The notes under the pieces are model-generated. The model saw only the letters and a list, made by a program, of their open reading frames with translations. It was not told where the DNA came from and did not search any database. Positions 9,560 through 46,324 of a stretch of 64,000 nt of DNA are shown piece after piece. Source of the DNA: Escherichia coli (GTDB lineage Bacteria > Pseudomonadota > Gammaproteobacteria > Enterobacterales > Enterobacteriaceae); the NCBI RefSeq assembly GCF_030013595.1, contig NZ_CP122768.1. One strand, 5' to 3'. Both the position numbers and the translations under genes were made by a program. How positions within the stretch are numbered: position 1 is the first letter of the stretch; each line of letters opens with the position of its first letter.

Positions 9560-10318
9560 ATGAGCCTGACCCTCACACTTACTGGCACTGGCGGCGCACA
9601 GGGCGTTCCCGCATGGGGCTGTGAGTGCGTGGCCTGCGTCAGAGCGCGGCGCTCACCGCAGTATCGCCGCCAGCCATGCAGCGGCGTCGTGAAGTTTAAC
9701 GACGCGATCACCCTGATCGACGCCGGGCTGCACGATCTCGCCGATCGCTGGTCGCCCGGATCGTTCCAGCAGTTTTTGCTGACGCACTACCATATGGATC
9801 ACGTGCAGGGGCTGTTTCCGCTGCGCTGGGGCGTGGGCGATTCGATCCCGATCTACGGCCCGCCGGATGAACAGGGCTGCGACGATCTGTTTAAACATCC
9901 GGGCCAGCTTGATTTCAGCCACACGATGGAACCGTTTGTGGTGTTTGATTTACAGGGGTTACAGGTCACGCCCCTGCCGCTCAACCACTCAAAACTGACC
10001 TTCGGTTATCTGCTGGAAACGGCACATAGCCGGGTGGCGTGGCTGTCTGACACCGCAGGCCTACCGGAAAAAACGCTGAAATTTTTACGCAATAATCAAC
10101 CGCAGGTGATGGTGATTGATTGCAGCCACCCACCGCGCGAGGATGCACCGCGTAATCACTGTGATTTAAATACCGTGCTTGCGCTGAATGAAGTTATCCG
10201 CTCGCCGCGCGTGGTTCTGACCCATATCAGCCATCAGTTTGATGCGTGGCTGATGGAGAACTTACTGCCGTCAGGGTTTGAGGCGGGGTTTGATGGGATG
10301 GAGATTGGGGTGGCGTGA
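9560..10318 (+). CDS. phnP: Metallo-beta-lactamase-fold phosphodiesterase PhnP
   Basis: 252 aa from [12 protein letters not shown]; HYHMDH metal-binding motif; ATG 2 nt after the phnO stop. Confidence 0.9.
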
Positions 10319-10345
10319 GGGAAAATACCCGCGCCGGCCCCTATA

Positions 10346-10675
10346 TCAACGCCCATACTCATCTTCCATTCTCCGCTCTTCATCCTCCAGTTGCCGACGC
10401 TCCTGATCAAGCTGGCGCTGGCGATCGTCCAGCTGCCTGCGGCGATCTTCAAACTGACGGCGGCGGTCGTCATATTGTCTGCGCCGATCGTCGCTCACTT
10501 CACGCTGCCAGCCGTCGTCGTGCGAATCTTCATAGTCTCGCCCACGGTCAGGGTTATAAGCATCGTTAATCGCCTGCTGAATATTGCCAATGGTGTCGTC
10601 GATAATATCGGCCTGGGCCGGAACGGTAGACAGCGTGAGCAGGGTGAATAAAAGAAATAGCGGAAAGCGTTTCAT
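10346..10675 (-). CDS. yjdP: Small secreted low-complexity protein YjdP
   Basis: 109 aa ORF; signal peptide followed by Arg/Asp/Gln/Glu-rich repeats (DDRRRQ...). Confidence 0.8.
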   Translation of the reverse strand: MKRFPLFLLFTLLTLSTVPAQADIIDDTIGNIQQAINDAYNPDRGRDYEDSHDDGWQREVSDDRRRQYDDRRRQFEDRRRQLDDRQRQLDQERRQLEDEERRMEDEYGR

Positions 10676-10743
10676 TAGCCAACCTCAAAAAGAAACTCTA
10701 TCCACATTAGTCATTACTCATCCATGCAAGTAGTGGACGAATC

Positions 10744-11061
10744 TCAATTTCTCCGCTGCTCTATTGCCGTAATCGCCTCCACGCGTTGTTGATGACGACC
10801 GCCTTCGTACTGCGCGCCCAGCCACGCATCCACAATCATTTTTGCCAGTTCGAGGCCAACCACTCGTGAACCAAAAGCCAGTGCAACTTCACTGGCGTAA
10901 TGCGGATAATCAGTGCGCTCTGACGGCCTGGTTTCTTTATCAATCCCCTCACTCATTGACCATGAATAAAAGGCTGGCACAGCAACGCGGAATCCTGCGG
11001 TGCCAGCGACATGACCGCCCATTGCTCCGGTACGTTTTTTAATAAAAAACACCGGTTGCAT
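10744..11061 (-). pseudogene. rpiB: Ribose-5-phosphate isomerase B remnant: RpiB-like N- and C-terminal segments with the central catalytic region missing
   Basis: 105 aa ORF with SERTDYPHYAS motif and RpiB/LacAB-like C-terminus but about 45 residues shorter than RpiB; residues upstream of the motif are in a foreign frame. Confidence 0.6.
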
Positions 11062-11313
11062 TGATTAATTGTGCTCAGTATTTGCCGAAGTACAATATAT
11101 ATAATAAATATATAAAACACCTCATATTATTTACAGAAATAATGAATTCGCGTAATTTTCCCTCTTCAGCACAAATGCCTAATAAAATGGCGCGTTCAGC
11201 TCACACTTCTACTTATTAAAGTCGCAATTTCCCAATTATGATAACGCCAGCTTCAAATGACGTATTTTGCATGGGTTACATATTTACGACATAAATGATA
11301 AATGGAGATTTAT

Positions 11314-18544: not shown

Positions 18545-20692
18545 ATGAAAAAAGTCGTCACGGTTTGCCCCTATTGCGCATCAGGTTGCAAAATCAACCT
18601 GGTCGTCGATAACGGCAAAATCGTCCGGGCGGAGGCAGCGCAGGGGAAAACCAACCAGGGTACCCTGTGTCTGAAGGGTTATTATGGCTGGGACTTCATT
18701 AACGATACCCAGATCCTGACCCCGCGCCTGAAAACCCCCATGATCCGTCGCCAGCGTGGCGGCAAACTCGAACCTGTTTCCTGGGATGAGGCACTGAATT
18801 ACGTTGCCGAGCGCCTGAGCGCCATCAAAGAGAAGTACGGTCCGGATGCCATCCAGACGACCGGCTCCTCGCGTGGTACGGGTAACGAAACCAACTATGT
18901 AATGCAAAAATTTGCGCGCGCCGTTATTGGTACCAATAACGTTGACTGCTGCGCTCGTGTCTGACACGGCCCATCGGTTGCAGGTCTGCACCAATCGGTC
19001 GGTAATGGCGCAATGAGCAATGCTATTAACGAAATTGATAATACCGATTTAGTGTTCGTTTTCGGGTACAACCCGGCGGATTCCCACCCAATCGTGGCGA
19101 ATCACGTAATTAACGCTAAACGTAACGGGGCGAAAATTATCGTCTGCGATCCGCGCAAAATTGAAACCGCGCGCATTGCGGACATGCACATTGCACTGAA
19201 AAACGGCTCAAACATCGCGCTGTTGAATGCGATGGGTCATGTCATTATTGAAGAAAACCTGTACGACAAAGCGTTCGTCGCTTCCCGTACAGAAGGCTTT
19301 GAAGAGTATCGTAAAATCGTTGAAGGCTACACGCCGGAGTCGGTTGAAGATATCACCGGCGTCAGCGCCAGTGAGATTCGTCAGGCGGCACGGATGTATG
19401 CCCAGGCGAAAAGCGCCGCCATCCTGTGGGGCATGGGTGTAACCCAGTTCTACCAGGGTGTGGAAACCGTGCGTTCTCTGACCAGCCTCGCGATGCTGAC
19501 TGGTAACCTCGGTAAGCCGCATGCGGGTGTAAACCCGGTTCGTGGTCAGAACAACGTGCAGGGTGCCTGCGATATGGGCGCGCTGCCGGATACGTATCCG
19601 GGCTATCAGTACGTGAAAGATCCGGCTAACCGCGAGAAATTCGCCAAAGCCTGGGGCGTGGAAAGCCTGCCAGCGCATACCGGCTATCGCATCAGCGAGC
19701 TGCCGCACCGCGCAGCGCATGGCGAAGTGCGTGCCGCGTACATTATGGGCGAAGATCCGCTGCAAACTGACGCGGAGCTGTCGGCAGTACGTAAAGCCTT
19801 CGAAGATCTGGAACTGGTCATCGTTCAGGACATCTTTATGACCAAAACCGCGTCGGCGGCGGATGTTATTTTACCGTCAACGTCGTGGGGCGAGCATGAA
19901 GGCGTGTTTACTGCGGCTGACCGTGGCTTCCAGCGTTTCTTCAAAGCGGTTGAACCGAAGTGGGATCTGAAAACGGACTGGCAAATCATCAGTGAAATCG
20001 CCACCCGTATGGGTTATCCGATGCACTACAACAACACCCAGGAGATCTGGGATGAGTTGCGTCATCTGTGCCCGGATTTCTACGGTGCGACTTACGAGAA
20101 AATGGGCGAACTGGGCTTCATTCAGTGGCCTTGCCGCGATACTTCAGATGCCGATCAGGGGACTTCTTATCTGTTTAAAGAGAAGTTTGATACCCCGAAC
20201 GGTCTGGCGCAGTTCTTCACCTGCGACTGGGTAGCGCCAATCGACAAACTCACCGACGAGTATCCGATGGTACTGTCAACGGTGCGTGAAGTTGGTCACT
20301 ACTCTTGCCGTTCGATGACCGGTAACTGTGCGGCACTGGCAGCGCTGGCTGATGAACCTGGCTACGCACAAATCAATACCGAAGACGCCAAACGTCTGGG
20401 TATTGAAGATGAGGCATTGGTTTGGGTGCACTCGCGTAAAGGCAAAATTATCACCCGTGCGCAGGTCAGCGATCGTCCGAACAAAGGGGCGATTTATATG
20501 ACCTACCAGTGGTGGATTGGTGCCTGTAACGAGCTGGTTACCGAAAACTTAAGCCCGATTACGAAAACGCCGGAATACAAATACTGCGCCGTGCGCGTCG
20601 AGCCGATCGCCGATCAGCGCGCCGCCGAGCAGTACGTGATTGACGAGTACAACAAGTTGAAAACTCGCCTGCGCGAAGCGGCACTGGCGTAA
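18545..20692 (+). CDS. fdhF: Formate dehydrogenase H, selenocysteine-containing molybdoenzyme; in-frame TGA at 18962-18964 read as Sec
   Basis: Track ORFs 18545..18964 and 19013..20692 are in the same frame, separated only by TGA after VDCCARV; 715 aa total; N-terminal Fe-S cysteine motif CPYCASGC. Confidence 0.93.
18962..19008 (+). promoter_or_regulatory. SECIS selenocysteine-insertion stem-loop immediately 3' of the fdhF UGA
   Basis: Position directly after the in-frame UGA; exact structure boundaries not folded here. Confidence 0.7.
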
Positions 20693-20705: not shown

Positions 20706-20734
20706 ACAGCCTCCTTCCGGAGGCTGTTTTTTTA
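20706..20734 (+). terminator. Rho-independent terminator downstream of fdhF
   Basis: Hairpin acagcctcc ttcc ggaggctgt followed by a run of seven T. Confidence 0.8.
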
Positions 20735-20785
20735 TCCATTCGAACTCTTTATACTGGTTACTCCCTACCCAATCGTATTATCAAA

Positions 20786-39289: not shown

Positions 39290-39450
39290 TGACATACAAT
39301 TAAAGCATCAACACCAACCGGAACCTCCACCACGTGCTCGAATGAGGTGTGTTGACGTCGGGGGAAACCCTCCTGTGTACCAGCGGGATAGAGAGAAAGA
39401 CAAAGACCGGAAAACAAACTAAAGCGCCCTTGTGGCGCTTTAGTTTTGTT
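39290..39450 (+). ncRNA. ryjA: Candidate small RNA (ryjA position) ending at a terminator hairpin that overlaps the soxR 3' end
   Basis: Strong hairpin aaactaaagcgcc / ggcgctttagttt at 39416..39446 followed by T-rich tract; remembered ryjA location between soxR and ghxP; 5' boundary is a guess. Confidence 0.35.
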
Positions 39451-39904
39451 CATCTTCCAGCAAGCGTGCGCCTGTGCCTTCTTCTCCTAAGCGGTCGCCC
39501 GGGTTACGCAATGGGCAATCACTGCGTGAAAGGCAGCCACAACCAATACATCCGTCCAGCTCGTCACGCAGCGCCACTAAGGTATGAATGCGTCGATCCA
39601 ACTCTTCTCGCCATTGGGACGAAAGCTGTTTCCACTCTTTCGCACTTAATGTATGCCCTTCGGGCAACACGCCAAATGCTTCACGAATGGTCGCCAGCGG
39701 AATGCCAATACGCTGAGCAATTTTGATGATTGCGACATATCGCAACACATCACGTTTATATCGCCGCTGATTGCCACTATTACGGATACTGCTAATCAAC
39801 CCTTTGCTTTCATAGAAATGCAGCGCCGATACCGCCACACCGCTGCGTTTTGCCACTTCGCCGGGGGTTAGCAGCGCTTTAATGCGGGGTAATTTCTTTT
39901 CCAT
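39440..39904 (-). CDS. soxR: Redox-sensing MerR-family regulator SoxR ([2Fe-2S])
   Basis: 154 aa ORF; C-terminal cysteine cluster [12 protein letters not shown]. Confidence 0.95.
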
Positions 39905-42711: not shown

Positions 42712-43248
42712 TCAGAACGGAATATCGTCATCAAAGTCCATCGGCGGCTCGTTAGACGGTGCTGCCGGAGCAGACTGCTGCGGGCGAGACTGCGCGCCGC
42801 CGCTGAACTGATTGCCGCCCTGCGGCTGCTGAGGCTGACCCCAACCGCCCTGCGGCTGACCACCACCGATATTGCCACCTGCAGGAGCGCCACCACCCTG
42901 ACGACCACCCAACATCTGCATGGTGCCGCCAACGTTCACCACGACTTCTGTGGTGTAGCGATCCTGACCGGATTGATCGGTCCATTTGCGGGTACGCAGC
43001 TGACCTTCGATATAAACCTGAGAACCTTTACGCAGATATTCGCTGGCTACTTCTGCCAGTTTGCCGAACAGCACAACGCGGTGCCATTCAGTCTGCTCTT
43101 TCATCTCGCCGGTCGCTTTGTCACGCCAGGATTCGGAAGTAGCCAGCGTAATGTTGGCAACTGCGCCACCATTTGGCATGTAGCGTACTTCCGGGTCCTG
43201 ACCCAGATTACCAACGAGAATAACCTTGTTTACGCCTCTGCTGGCCAT
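42712..43248 (-). CDS. ssb: Single-stranded DNA-binding protein
   Basis: 178 aa from [16 protein letters not shown]; Gly/Gln/Pro-rich tail ending DFDDDIPF. Confidence 0.97.
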
Positions 43249-43400
43249 GTTCGTGTCTCCTGAAAAAAATCGTTCTGAATAAGTGTAAACGCGCGATTGT
43301 ACCATTACCAATAGCGCTTTTACTATGTTGTGACCTCGGTTCCGGGAAACAAACCTGGCCAGACATTGTTACACAACACTCCGGGTAATGCATTCCAATA

Positions 43401-43416
43401 CTGTATATTCATTCAG
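43401..43416. promoter_or_regulatory. LexA (SOS) box shared by divergent ssb and uvrA promoters
   Basis: ctgtatattcattcag matches CTGT-N8-ACAG. Confidence 0.85.
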
Positions 43417-43501
43417 GTCAATTTGTGTCATAATTAACCGTTTGTGATCGCCGGTAGCACCATGCCACCGGGCAAAAAAGCGTTTAATCCGGGAAAGGTG
43501 A

Positions 43502-46324
43502 ATGGATAAGATCGAAGTTCGGGGCGCCCGCACCCATAATCTCAAAAACATCAACCTCGTTATCCCCCGCGACAAGCTCATTGTCGTGACCGGGCTTTCG
43601 GGTTCTGGCAAATCCTCGCTCGCTTTCGACACCTTATATGCCGAAGGGCAGCGCCGTTACGTTGAATCCCTTTCCGCCTACGCGCGGCAGTTTCTGTCAC
43701 TGATGGAAAAGCCGGACGTCGATCATATTGAGGGGCTTTCTCCTGCCATCTCAATTGAGCAGAAATCGACGTCTCATAACCCGCGTTCTACGGTGGGGAC
43801 AATCACCGAAATCCACGACTATTTGCGTTTGCTGTTCGCCCGCGTTGGCGAGCCGCGCTGTCCGGACCACGACGTCCCGCTGGCGGCGCAAACCGTCAGC
43901 CAGATGGTGGATAACGTGCTGTCGCAGCCGGAAGGCAAGCGTCTGATGCTACTCGCGCCAATCATTAAAGAGCGCAAAGGCGAACACACCAAAACGCTGG
44001 AGAACCTGGCAAGCCAGGGTTACATTCGTGCTCGTATTGATGGCGAAGTCTGCGATCTTTCCGATCCGCCGAAACTGGAACTGCAAAAGAAACATACCAT
44101 TGAAGTGGTGGTTGATCGCTTCAAGGTGCGTGATGATCTTTCCCAACGTCTTGCCGAGTCGTTTGAAACTGCGCTGGAGCTTTCCGGTGGTACCGCGGTA
44201 GTTGCGGATATGGACGACCCGAAAGCGGAAGAGCTGCTGTTCTCCGCTAATTTCGCCTGCCCAATTTGCGGCTACAGTATGCGCGAGCTGGAGCCGCGAC
44301 TGTTTTCGTTTAACAACCCGGCAGGGGCCTGCCCGACCTGTGACGGCCTTGGCGTGCAGCAATATTTCGATCCTGACCGCGTGATCCAGAATCCGGAACT
44401 GTCGCTGGCTGGCGGTGCGATCCGAGGCTGGGATCGCCGCAACTTCTATTACTTCCAGATGCTGAAATCGCTGGCAAATCACTATAAGTTCGACGTCGAA
44501 GCGCCGTGGGGCAGCCTGAGCGCGAACGTGCATAAAGTGGTGTTGTACGGTTCTGGCAAAGAAAACATTGAATTCAAATACATGAACGATCGTGGCGATA
44601 CCTCCATTCGTCGTCATCCGTTCGAAGGCGTGCTGCACAATATGGAGCGCCGTTATAAAGAGACGGAATCCAGTGCGGTACGCGAAGAATTAGCCAAGTT
44701 TATCAGCAATCGCCCGTGCGCCAGCTGCGAAGGGACGCGTCTGCGTCGGGAAGCGCGCCATGTGTATGTCGAGAATACGCCGCTGCCTGCTATCTCCGAC
44801 ATGAGCATCGGTCATGCGATGGAATTCTTCAACAATCTCAAACTCGCAGGTCAGCGAGCGAAGATTGCGGAAAAAATTCTTAAAGAGATTGGCGATCGCC
44901 TGAAATTCCTCGTTAACGTCGGCCTGAATTACCTGACACTTTCCCGCTCGGCAGAGACACTTTCTGGCGGTGAAGCCCAGCGTATCCGTCTGGCGAGCCA
45001 GATTGGTGCGGGCCTGGTTGGCGTTATGTACGTGCTGGACGAGCCGTCTATCGGCCTGCACCAGCGCGATAACGAGCGCCTGTTGGGTACGCTTATCCAT
45101 CTGCGCGATCTCGGTAATACCGTGATTGTGGTGGAGCACGACGAAGACGCGATTCGCGCCGCTGACCATGTGATCGACATTGGCCCGGGCGCAGGTGTAC
45201 ACGGCGGTGAAGTGGTCGCAGAAGGTCCACTGGAAGCGATTATGGCAGTGCCTGAGTCGTTGACCGGGCAGTACATGAGCGGCAAACGCAAGATTGAAGT
45301 GCCGAAGAAACGCGTTCCGGCGAATCCGGAAAAAGTGCTGAAGCTGACAGGCGCACGTGGTAATAACCTGAAAGACGTGACGCTGACGCTGCCAGTCGGT
45401 CTGTTTACCTGCATCACAGGGGTTTCAGGTTCCGGTAAATCGACGCTGATTAACGACACACTGTTCCCGATTGCCCAACGCCAGTTGAATGGTGCGACCA
45501 TCGCCGAACCGGCACCGTATCGCGATATTCAGGGGCTGGAGCATTTCGATAAAGTGATCGATATCGACCAAAGCCCAATTGGTCGTACTCCGCGTTCTAA
45601 CCCGGCGACCTATACCGGCGTGTTTACGCCTGTGCGCGAACTGTTTGCGGGCGTACCGGAATCCCGTGCGCGCGGCTATACGCCGGGACGTTTCAGCTTT
45701 AACGTCCGTGGCGGGCGCTGCGAAGCCTGTCAGGGCGACGGCGTGATCAAAGTGGAGATGCACTTCCTGCCGGATATCTACGTACCGTGCGACCAGTGCA
45801 AAGGCAAACGCTATAACCGTGAAACGCTGGAGATTAAGTACAAAGGCAAAACCATCCACGAAGTGCTGGATATGACCATCGAAGAGGCGCGTGAGTTCTT
45901 TGATGCGGTGCCAGCTCTGGCGCGTAAGCTGCAAACGTTGATGGACGTTGGTCTGACGTACATTCGCCTGGGGCAGTCCGCAACCACACTTTCTGGTGGT
46001 GAAGCCCAGCGCGTGAAGCTGGCGCGTGAGCTGTCAAAACGCGGCACCGGGCAGACGCTGTATATTCTCGACGAGCCGACCACCGGTCTGCACTTCGCCG
46101 ATATTCAGCAACTCCTCGACGTGCTGCATAAACTGCGCGATCAGGGCAATACCATTGTGGTGATTGAGCACAATCTCGACGTGATCAAAACCGCTGACTG
46201 GATTGTCGACCTGGGACCAGAAGGCGGCAGTGGCGGCGGCGAAATCCTCGTCTCCGGTACGCCAGAAACCGTCGCGGAGTGCGAAGCTTCGCATACGGCA
46301 CGCTTCCTCAAGCCGATGCTGTAA
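43502..46324 (+). CDS. uvrA: Excinuclease ABC subunit A
   Basis: 940 aa ORF; two ABC ATPase modules and zinc-finger cysteine pairs. Confidence 0.97.

Follow-up and report, generated by a model that had tools for sequence, protein, structure and literature searches.

Canonical LexA operators at uvrA/ssb and lexA-dinF in 64 kb of an Escherichia coli chromosome

Gene content of the window

The DNA considered here, which we refer to as the window, is a 64,000-nucleotide stretch of E. coli chromosome that lies in the reverse orientation relative to that of K-12. An 801-bp query drawn across its ssb-uvrA region matches 5425 of the 5426 complete E. coli genomes, where the genes annotated beneath the match are uvrA and ssb. 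Apart from the reversal, the gene order is that annotated by RefSeq in a matching strain and in K-12 MG1655. In its first part, it runs through soxR, soxS, pdeC, yjcB, ssb (− strand), uvrA (+ strand), yjbR, yjbQ, aphA, tyrB, and alr, and in its second part it runs through dnaB, qorA, pspG, dusA, zur, yjbJ, dinF, lexA, and dgkA (the last three on the − strand) to plsB. All gene coordinates given below are those of the window's own open reading frames (ORFs); those of strain VCSW5 do not carry over by a fixed offset, as the two strains differ in SNPs and indels outside the anchored part.

Four of these genes concern us here. The ssb gene (42712..43248, − strand) encodes 178 amino acids plus a stop codon and is recovered by the NCBIfam model NF006533 with 360 bits against a cut-off of 260, in agreement with the RefSeq ssb of the matching records, while uvrA (43502..46324, + strand; 940 aa) is recovered by NF001503 with 1629 bits against a cut-off of 1147. 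The lexA gene (61051..61659, − strand; 202 aa) scores 289.5 bits with the equivalog model TIGR00498 (cut-off of 111), such that the cognate LexA repressor is encoded within the window itself, and the long dinF ORF of the K-12 annotation (59653..61032, − strand) scores 911 bits with NF007690 (cut-off of 409). Hence, both the identities and the orientations that an initial annotation, made from the bare sequence, had given to these genes are right by NCBIfam and RefSeq: ssb and uvrA diverge, and lexA and dinF share the − strand. Its description of the region as an SOS regulon “hub” is too strong, in that the genes form two separate classical SOS loci that lie 18 kb apart and are neighbors by chance.

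Several other features of the window can be recorded in passing. At approximately 10300..11300, phnP, yjdP, a remnant of an RpiB-family gene, and yjcS are directly adjacent; this arrangement is contiguous in 1573 of the 5426 E. coli genomes, and in most of the others the query is divided between two places. K-12 carries rpiB and the als operon at this position, a difference that would account for the window being about 7 kb shorter than the corresponding part of K-12. The fdhF gene is split into two ORFs (18545..18964 and 19013..20692) by an in-frame TGA, the selenocysteine codon of formate dehydrogenase H, at which a SECIS_2 element begins (18957..19011, + strand; Rfam, 87 bits). The Hfq-binding small RNA sraL (RyjA) lies at 39307..39447 on the + strand (Rfam, 153 bits), and the soxR ORF on the opposite strand (39440..39904, − strand) overlaps it with its 3′ end. 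Finally, a single 318-aa ORF (57497..58453, − strand) takes the place of the two genes, yjbL and yjbM, of the K-12 annotation, and a single 1005-nt DUF2713 gene is annotated at this position in a matching strain.

LexA operators

The divergent control region of ssb and uvrA is the exact 253-bp spacer (43249..43501) from the ssb ATG (43248, − strand) to the uvrA ATG (43502, + strand), and it holds, as had been initially noted, a single box with the core CTGTATATTCATTCAG at 43401..43416. Two further boxes in tandem, CTGGGTGTATATACAG at 61668..61683 and CTGTGAGTATATACAG at 61689..61704, precede lexA, and all three are found precisely where the initial annotation had placed them. Its wording of the motif as CTGT-N8-ACAG holds only in part: the box at 61689 conforms to it, but the last four bases are TCAG in the uvrA/ssb box, and the box at 61668 reads CTGT-N8-CCAG on the lexA strand.

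The motif can be assessed at three levels of stringency. The strict consensus CTGT-N8-ACAG has a single match in the window against 0.56 expected and was dropped as a criterion, being no better than chance and too strict for real operators. The core CTG-N10-CAG, present in all three boxes around TATA-rich centers, occurs 20 times against 14 expected and was likewise dropped as evidence because it is unspecific and too loose. For a full matrix, we used the 18 operators recognized by MEME upstream of UV-induced genes of K-12 (PMC3009722, Table 4) and removed the lexA entry, which left 17 operators, with none of the three tested boxes in the training set; the resulting 20-position matrix was made symmetric, and the window was scanned with it. 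No other 20-mer of the 64 kb scores as high as the three boxes, which reach 19.8, 18.7, and 17.3 bits; the sites that follow have 12.2 and 11.4 bits. On the same matrix, the published operators range from 12.6 to 29.6 bits, and all three boxes fall inside this range. From 300 first-order Markov simulations, the expected number of sites with 17 bits or more is 0.023 per 64 kb, as opposed to the 3 observed. A matrix scan of this kind was the check that the initial annotation had proposed, with scores below threshold as the outcome that would speak against it, and its boxes come out at the head of the ranking. A Lewis-type heterology index (HI) calculated from the same 17 sites gives a concordant picture: the boxes have values of 6.4, 8.0, and 8.2 and are the sole 20-mers of the window below 10, with the training operators ranging from 0.3 to 8.9 and eighteen 20-mers of the window lying below the permissive limit of 15.

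On the 20-mer definition, the operator common to uvrA and ssb is TACTGTATATTCATTCAGGT (43399..43418, around the core given above; 17.3 bits, HI of 8.2). The promoter-distal operator 1 of lexA is TGCTGTATATACTCACAGCA (61687..61706, − strand; 19.8 bits, HI of 6.4), and the promoter-proximal operator 2 is AACTGTATATACACCCAGGG (61666..61685, − strand; 18.7 bits, HI of 8.0). All three have the form of the gammaproteobacterial LexA operator, an imperfect palindrome of 20 bp with the consensus TACTG(TA)5CAGTA. The next-best site (29628..29647; 12.2 bits) is about 10 bp outside the longest nrfA ORF, within the spacer that precedes acs, and the one after it (20722..20741; 11.4 bits) lies between fdhF and yjcO. 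Both were rejected as chance-level because 0.3 to 0.5 matches of at least 11 to 12 bits are expected per window in the same simulations. The latter site resembles part of a T-rich terminator region. A third CTG-N10-CAG at the lexA locus (61730..61745), upstream of the −35 hexamer, was also set aside, as it scores 5.6 bits and is not kept in other genera. Thus, there are no LexA sites above chance in these 64 kb beyond the three.

The sequence around the operators is strongly conserved within the species. The 60 bp around the uvrA/ssb box are at least 99% identical in 4361 of the 5425 E. coli records and 95 to 99% identical in the rest, and the 71 bp around the lexA boxes are at least 99% identical in 5332 of the 5425. 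One divergent E. coli lineage has nine substitutions within 20 bp on the ssb side, which end 11 bp before the box; from that point through the box and the −10 element of uvrA, its sequence is unchanged.

Across species, the uvrA/ssb site could be followed in ssb loci taken from 80 species, in 71 of which uvrA diverges from ssb. In 70 of these 71, the best site in the spacer is significant at a p of ≤0.01 against 1000 shuffles of the species' own spacer, and in 63 species it scores higher than the lowest-scoring published operator. When 63 distinct spacers are aligned, conservation is 89% over the 20-mer versus 52% over the rest of the spacer, with the CTG and CAG columns of the box being 98 to 100% invariant. 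The distance from the box to the uvrA start is nearly constant (median of 82 bp, interquartile range of 79 to 95). Further, in five loci from Vibrio and Aeromonas, uvrA and ssb are 1.2 to 2.2 kb apart instead of about 250 bp, and a strong LexA site (18 to 26 bits) is still present beside uvrA, at a distance of 51 to 144 bp from its start. By this cross-species footprint, the shared box belongs geometrically to uvrA. For lexA, loci were obtained from eight other genera. Both boxes are present in all eight, while the sequence farther upstream diverges; in seven of the eight, the boxes stand 6 and 25 to 27 nt from the lexA ATG (10 and 31 nt in Mangrovibacter), and in seven of the eight they keep the 21-bp center-to-center spacing of the window's own pair. 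In Yersinia and Winslowiella, the two lexA operators are kept although dinF is absent downstream.

These observations bear on the alternative that the boxes resemble a short palindrome by chance alone, lying as they do in AT-rich intergenic DNA. The counts for the core and for the strict consensus, neither of which is commoner than chance would allow, are in line with such an explanation. It is contradicted by the full-matrix counts given above (3 sites of at least 17 bits against 0.023 expected), by the retention of the sites across 70 species at uvrA/ssb and eight genera at lexA while their flanks diverge, and by the identity of the boxes to K-12 sites that have been studied experimentally, and we give it practically no credence. 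Taking these findings together, we conclude, with a probability of about 95%, that the window carries the canonical E. coli SOS operators at uvrA/ssb and lexA-dinF.

Promoters around the operators

Scans at standard thresholds detected neither a consensus sigma-70 promoter nor a terminator in the ssb-uvrA spacer, and searches against Rfam detected no known RNA family in this spacer or in that of the lexA locus. Because such thresholds exclude weak hexamers, the assignments at uvrA and ssb were made with a looser scan combined with conservation. On the + strand, the best loose sigma-70 pair comprises a putative −35-like hexamer, TATTCA (43406..43411), which lies within the operator, a 17-nt spacer, and the hexamer CATAAT (43429..43434) preceded by TGT. 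The latter belongs to the predicted extended −10 element of uvrA, TGTCATAAT (43426..43434, + strand), which begins 7 bp downstream of the operator and forms a conserved island whose distance from the box is fixed in other species: the TG is present at this position in 63 of 70 distinct spacers, and a −10 hexamer with five of six matches occurs at the same offset in 51 of the 70. With the −35 hexamer inside the operator and the −10 locked to the box, a bound LexA dimer would be expected to occlude the uvrA promoter.

On the ssb side, there are two candidate elements of very different standing. The −35-like hexamer TTGACC (43421..43416, − strand) faces ssb and overlaps the operator, and it is a candidate for the distal, LexA-repressible ssb promoter P1; it occurs in only 2 of the 70 distinct spacers, and hexamers with at least four of six matches occur in 15 of the 70. 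The other is a putative ssb-proximal −10 element, TACAAT (43301..43296, − strand), which was picked up by the loose promoter scan and forms a conserved island in the 63-spacer alignment. About 100 bp separate this promoter from the operator, a distance over which LexA would not be expected to occlude it.

At lexA, the putative promoter (61694..61722, − strand) consists of the −35 hexamer TTCCAA (61722..61717), a 17-nt spacer, and the −10 hexamer TATACT (61699..61694). Its transcription start can be placed near 61686, because the published study of the K-12 promoter puts the target C of a Dcm site at +17 (PMC9210283). In this numbering, operator 1 extends from about −20 to −1 and includes the −10 hexamer, and operator 2 extends from about +2 to +21. 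The Dcm site itself, CCAGG in the extended context CCCAGGG, lies inside operator 2 (61667..61671). For the same 20-mer of K-12, an electrophoretic mobility shift assay (EMSA) has been reported, and its Dcm site is methylated only in stationary phase, with lexA expression unaffected (PMC9210283). Thus, with the promoters as assigned here, LexA operators overlap core promoter elements at both uvrA and lexA.

Based on this architecture and on the known behavior of LexA, we propose the following picture of control. A LexA dimer on the single operator at 43399..43418 would block RNA polymerase at the uvrA promoter and, in the same bound state, cover the divergent and weakly conserved distal promoter of ssb, with the conserved proximal promoter about 100 bp away giving ssb a LexA-independent basal expression. 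The two operators over the lexA promoter would provide negative autoregulation of the repressor. Upon DNA damage, RecA-stimulated self-cleavage of LexA would free all three operators.

LexA control of dinF and ssb and its counterparts in K-12 and Salmonella

The co-orientation of lexA with dinF, also part of the initial annotation, is confirmed, and the pair has the layout of an operon. The spacer between the two genes depends on the start codon of dinF, which is ambiguous. The K-12 annotation uses the ATG at 61032, which gives a product of 459 aa and a spacer of 18 nt, while PGAP uses the ATG at 60978, which gives 441 aa and a spacer of 72 nt (60979..61050). The alignment to the DinF model NF007690 begins at residue 19 of the long ORF, and in other genera the dinF products are 438 to 445 aa long and begin 69 to 153 nt after lexA. 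Hence, the real start is probably the ATG at 60978. This matters for a terminator-like hairpin directly after the lexA stop codon (61011..61040, − strand), which contains the upstream ATG and would then be wholly inside the 72-nt spacer. It has a stem of 13 pairs that includes 8 G-C pairs, a loop of 4, and a following U-run, UUUGUUUUU; its folding energy is −24.9 kcal/mol (z = −3.7), and none of 200 shuffles folds as well. By these features, it is a predicted intrinsic terminator, i.e., a G+C-rich stem-loop followed by a U-run. The eight other genera all have a stem-loop after the lexA stop codon as well, unrelated in sequence and in most cases accompanied by a T-run. We found no described lexA-dinF terminator for E. 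coli in the searchable literature. Early papers on the lexA sequence are said to have noted a terminator-like structure.

So efficient-looking a terminator sits awkwardly with simple cotranscription of lexA and dinF. One possibility is that the hairpin is a full terminator and that dinF has its own promoter, making the two genes neighbors rather than an operon. The strength of the hairpin and its U-run in a 72-nt spacer, the recurrence of a stem-loop after lexA in all eight other genera, and the absence of dinF downstream of lexA in Yersinia and Winslowiella, which indicates that the pairing is not obligatory, are all in line with this. However, the promoter scan found no consensus promoter in the lexA-dinF spacer. 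Krueger, Elledge, and Walker reportedly observed in 1983 that polar insertions in lexA abolish dinF expression, which counts against a separate dinF promoter. The matrix scan likewise found no LexA-type site of at least 12 bits in the spacer or near the dinF start, yet dinF is induced with SOS kinetics, by a log2 fold change of up to 3.04 after ciprofloxacin (PMC11002266). Moreover, a single UV-induced transcript touching “lexA, dinF,” with a LexA box upstream, has been reported (PMC3009722). We accordingly consider an independent dinF promoter to be quite improbable. Given the coinduction of dinF with the SOS response and the single transcript, read-through of a leaky terminator after lexA is the likeliest explanation: dinF, lacking an operator of its own, would owe its induction solely to transcripts that start at the lexA promoter and continue past the hairpin and U-run.

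A comparable question arises at the other locus, where the shared operator might in functional terms be that of uvrA only, with ssb not meaningfully repressed by LexA and its modest, late induction being indirect or confined to a minor transcript. The geometry described above is compatible with this, in that the box keeps its distance to uvrA and tracks it even where ssb is 1.2 to 2.1 kb away, most of the 70 spacers have the uvrA −10 at a fixed position relative to the box while the ssb-facing TTGACC recurs in only two, and the conserved ssb-proximal −10 lies about 100 bp off. There are also expression data that point the same way. According to the summary in PMC9505508, older studies, among them several that used radioimmunoassays and microarrays, saw no induction of ssb; basal ssb expression is equal in the wild type and a lexA3 strain (PMC9505508), and the SSB protein shows no significant rise after ciprofloxacin (PMC11002266). 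Against this stand the 9.6-fold induction of ssb by nalidixic acid in Salmonella, where uvrA rises 11.2-fold and lexA 6.9-fold (PMC8072944), and an increase of the ssb transcript in E. coli by a log2 fold change of up to 1.82 after ciprofloxacin, with 3.20 for uvrA (PMC11002266). On balance, we regard a box that serves uvrA only as unlikely. The literature describes three ssb promoters, of which LexA is able to repress only one, and a high SOS-independent basal expression with modest LexA-dependent induction (PMC9505508), and in accord with it ssb is only in part LexA controlled. The initial annotation had counted four SOS-controlled genes in the window. The published induction of all four agrees with this count, which needs to be qualified in that ssb is partly LexA controlled and dinF is without a box of its own.

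Taking the two loci together, a more specific scenario can be tentatively put forward, which we rate at somewhat less than an even chance: the shared box would ancestrally be a uvrA operator, with the control of ssb being a recent acquisition of Escherichia and its close relatives, and the hairpin after lexA would be a leaky or regulated attenuator. If so, a recent and clade-limited control of ssb could account for decades of conflicting data on its inducibility, and the hairpin would set the ratio of LexA to DinF output rather than being an incidental structure.

As for the sites themselves, the three are textbook E. coli LexA operators, correctly recognized, ordinary, and already known, and the initial judgment that they represent expected biology of use for annotation was a sound one. 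The current understanding of the SOS regulon is unchanged by them. Their value is in annotation: the three operators, the promoter elements, and the likely start of dinF can be marked with confidence in this strain.

The comparison with the K-12 operators that had also been suggested at the outset shows all three 20-mers to be identical to their K-12 counterparts. At uvrA/ssb, the SOS box of K-12 is the same 20-mer in the same divergent arrangement, and the 253-bp spacer is identical to that of MG1655 in 253 of 253 bases; the published HI of this shared box is 6.98 (PMC9505508). At lexA, the K-12 promoter, as described by Brent in 1982 and to the extent related by PMC9210283, which cites that work, has two operators with a Dcm site in the downstream one. 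The window agrees with K-12 in both lexA 20-mers, their 21-bp spacing, the TTCCAA and TATACT hexamers, and the CCCAGGG Dcm site. It comes from a non-K-12 strain all the same, with further differences elsewhere; in the dgkA-lexA spacer, which holds the lexA promoter region, 108 of 109 bases are as in MG1655, and the sole difference, a T/A substitution, lies 53 bp upstream of operator 1, the GAATTC of K-12 being GATTTC in the window. Salmonella enterica provides a somewhat more distant parallel, with a shared uvrA/ssb box with an HI of 6.99 and two lexA boxes at distances of 6 and 27 nt to the start codon (PMC8072944), and the Salmonella lexA locus that we examined has the same geometry as that of the window. 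The two differ at the end of operator 2, which reads ...ACAACCAGGG in Salmonella versus ...ACACCCAGGG in the window, such that the Salmonella version of the extended Dcm motif is without the 5′ flanking C on the coding strand.
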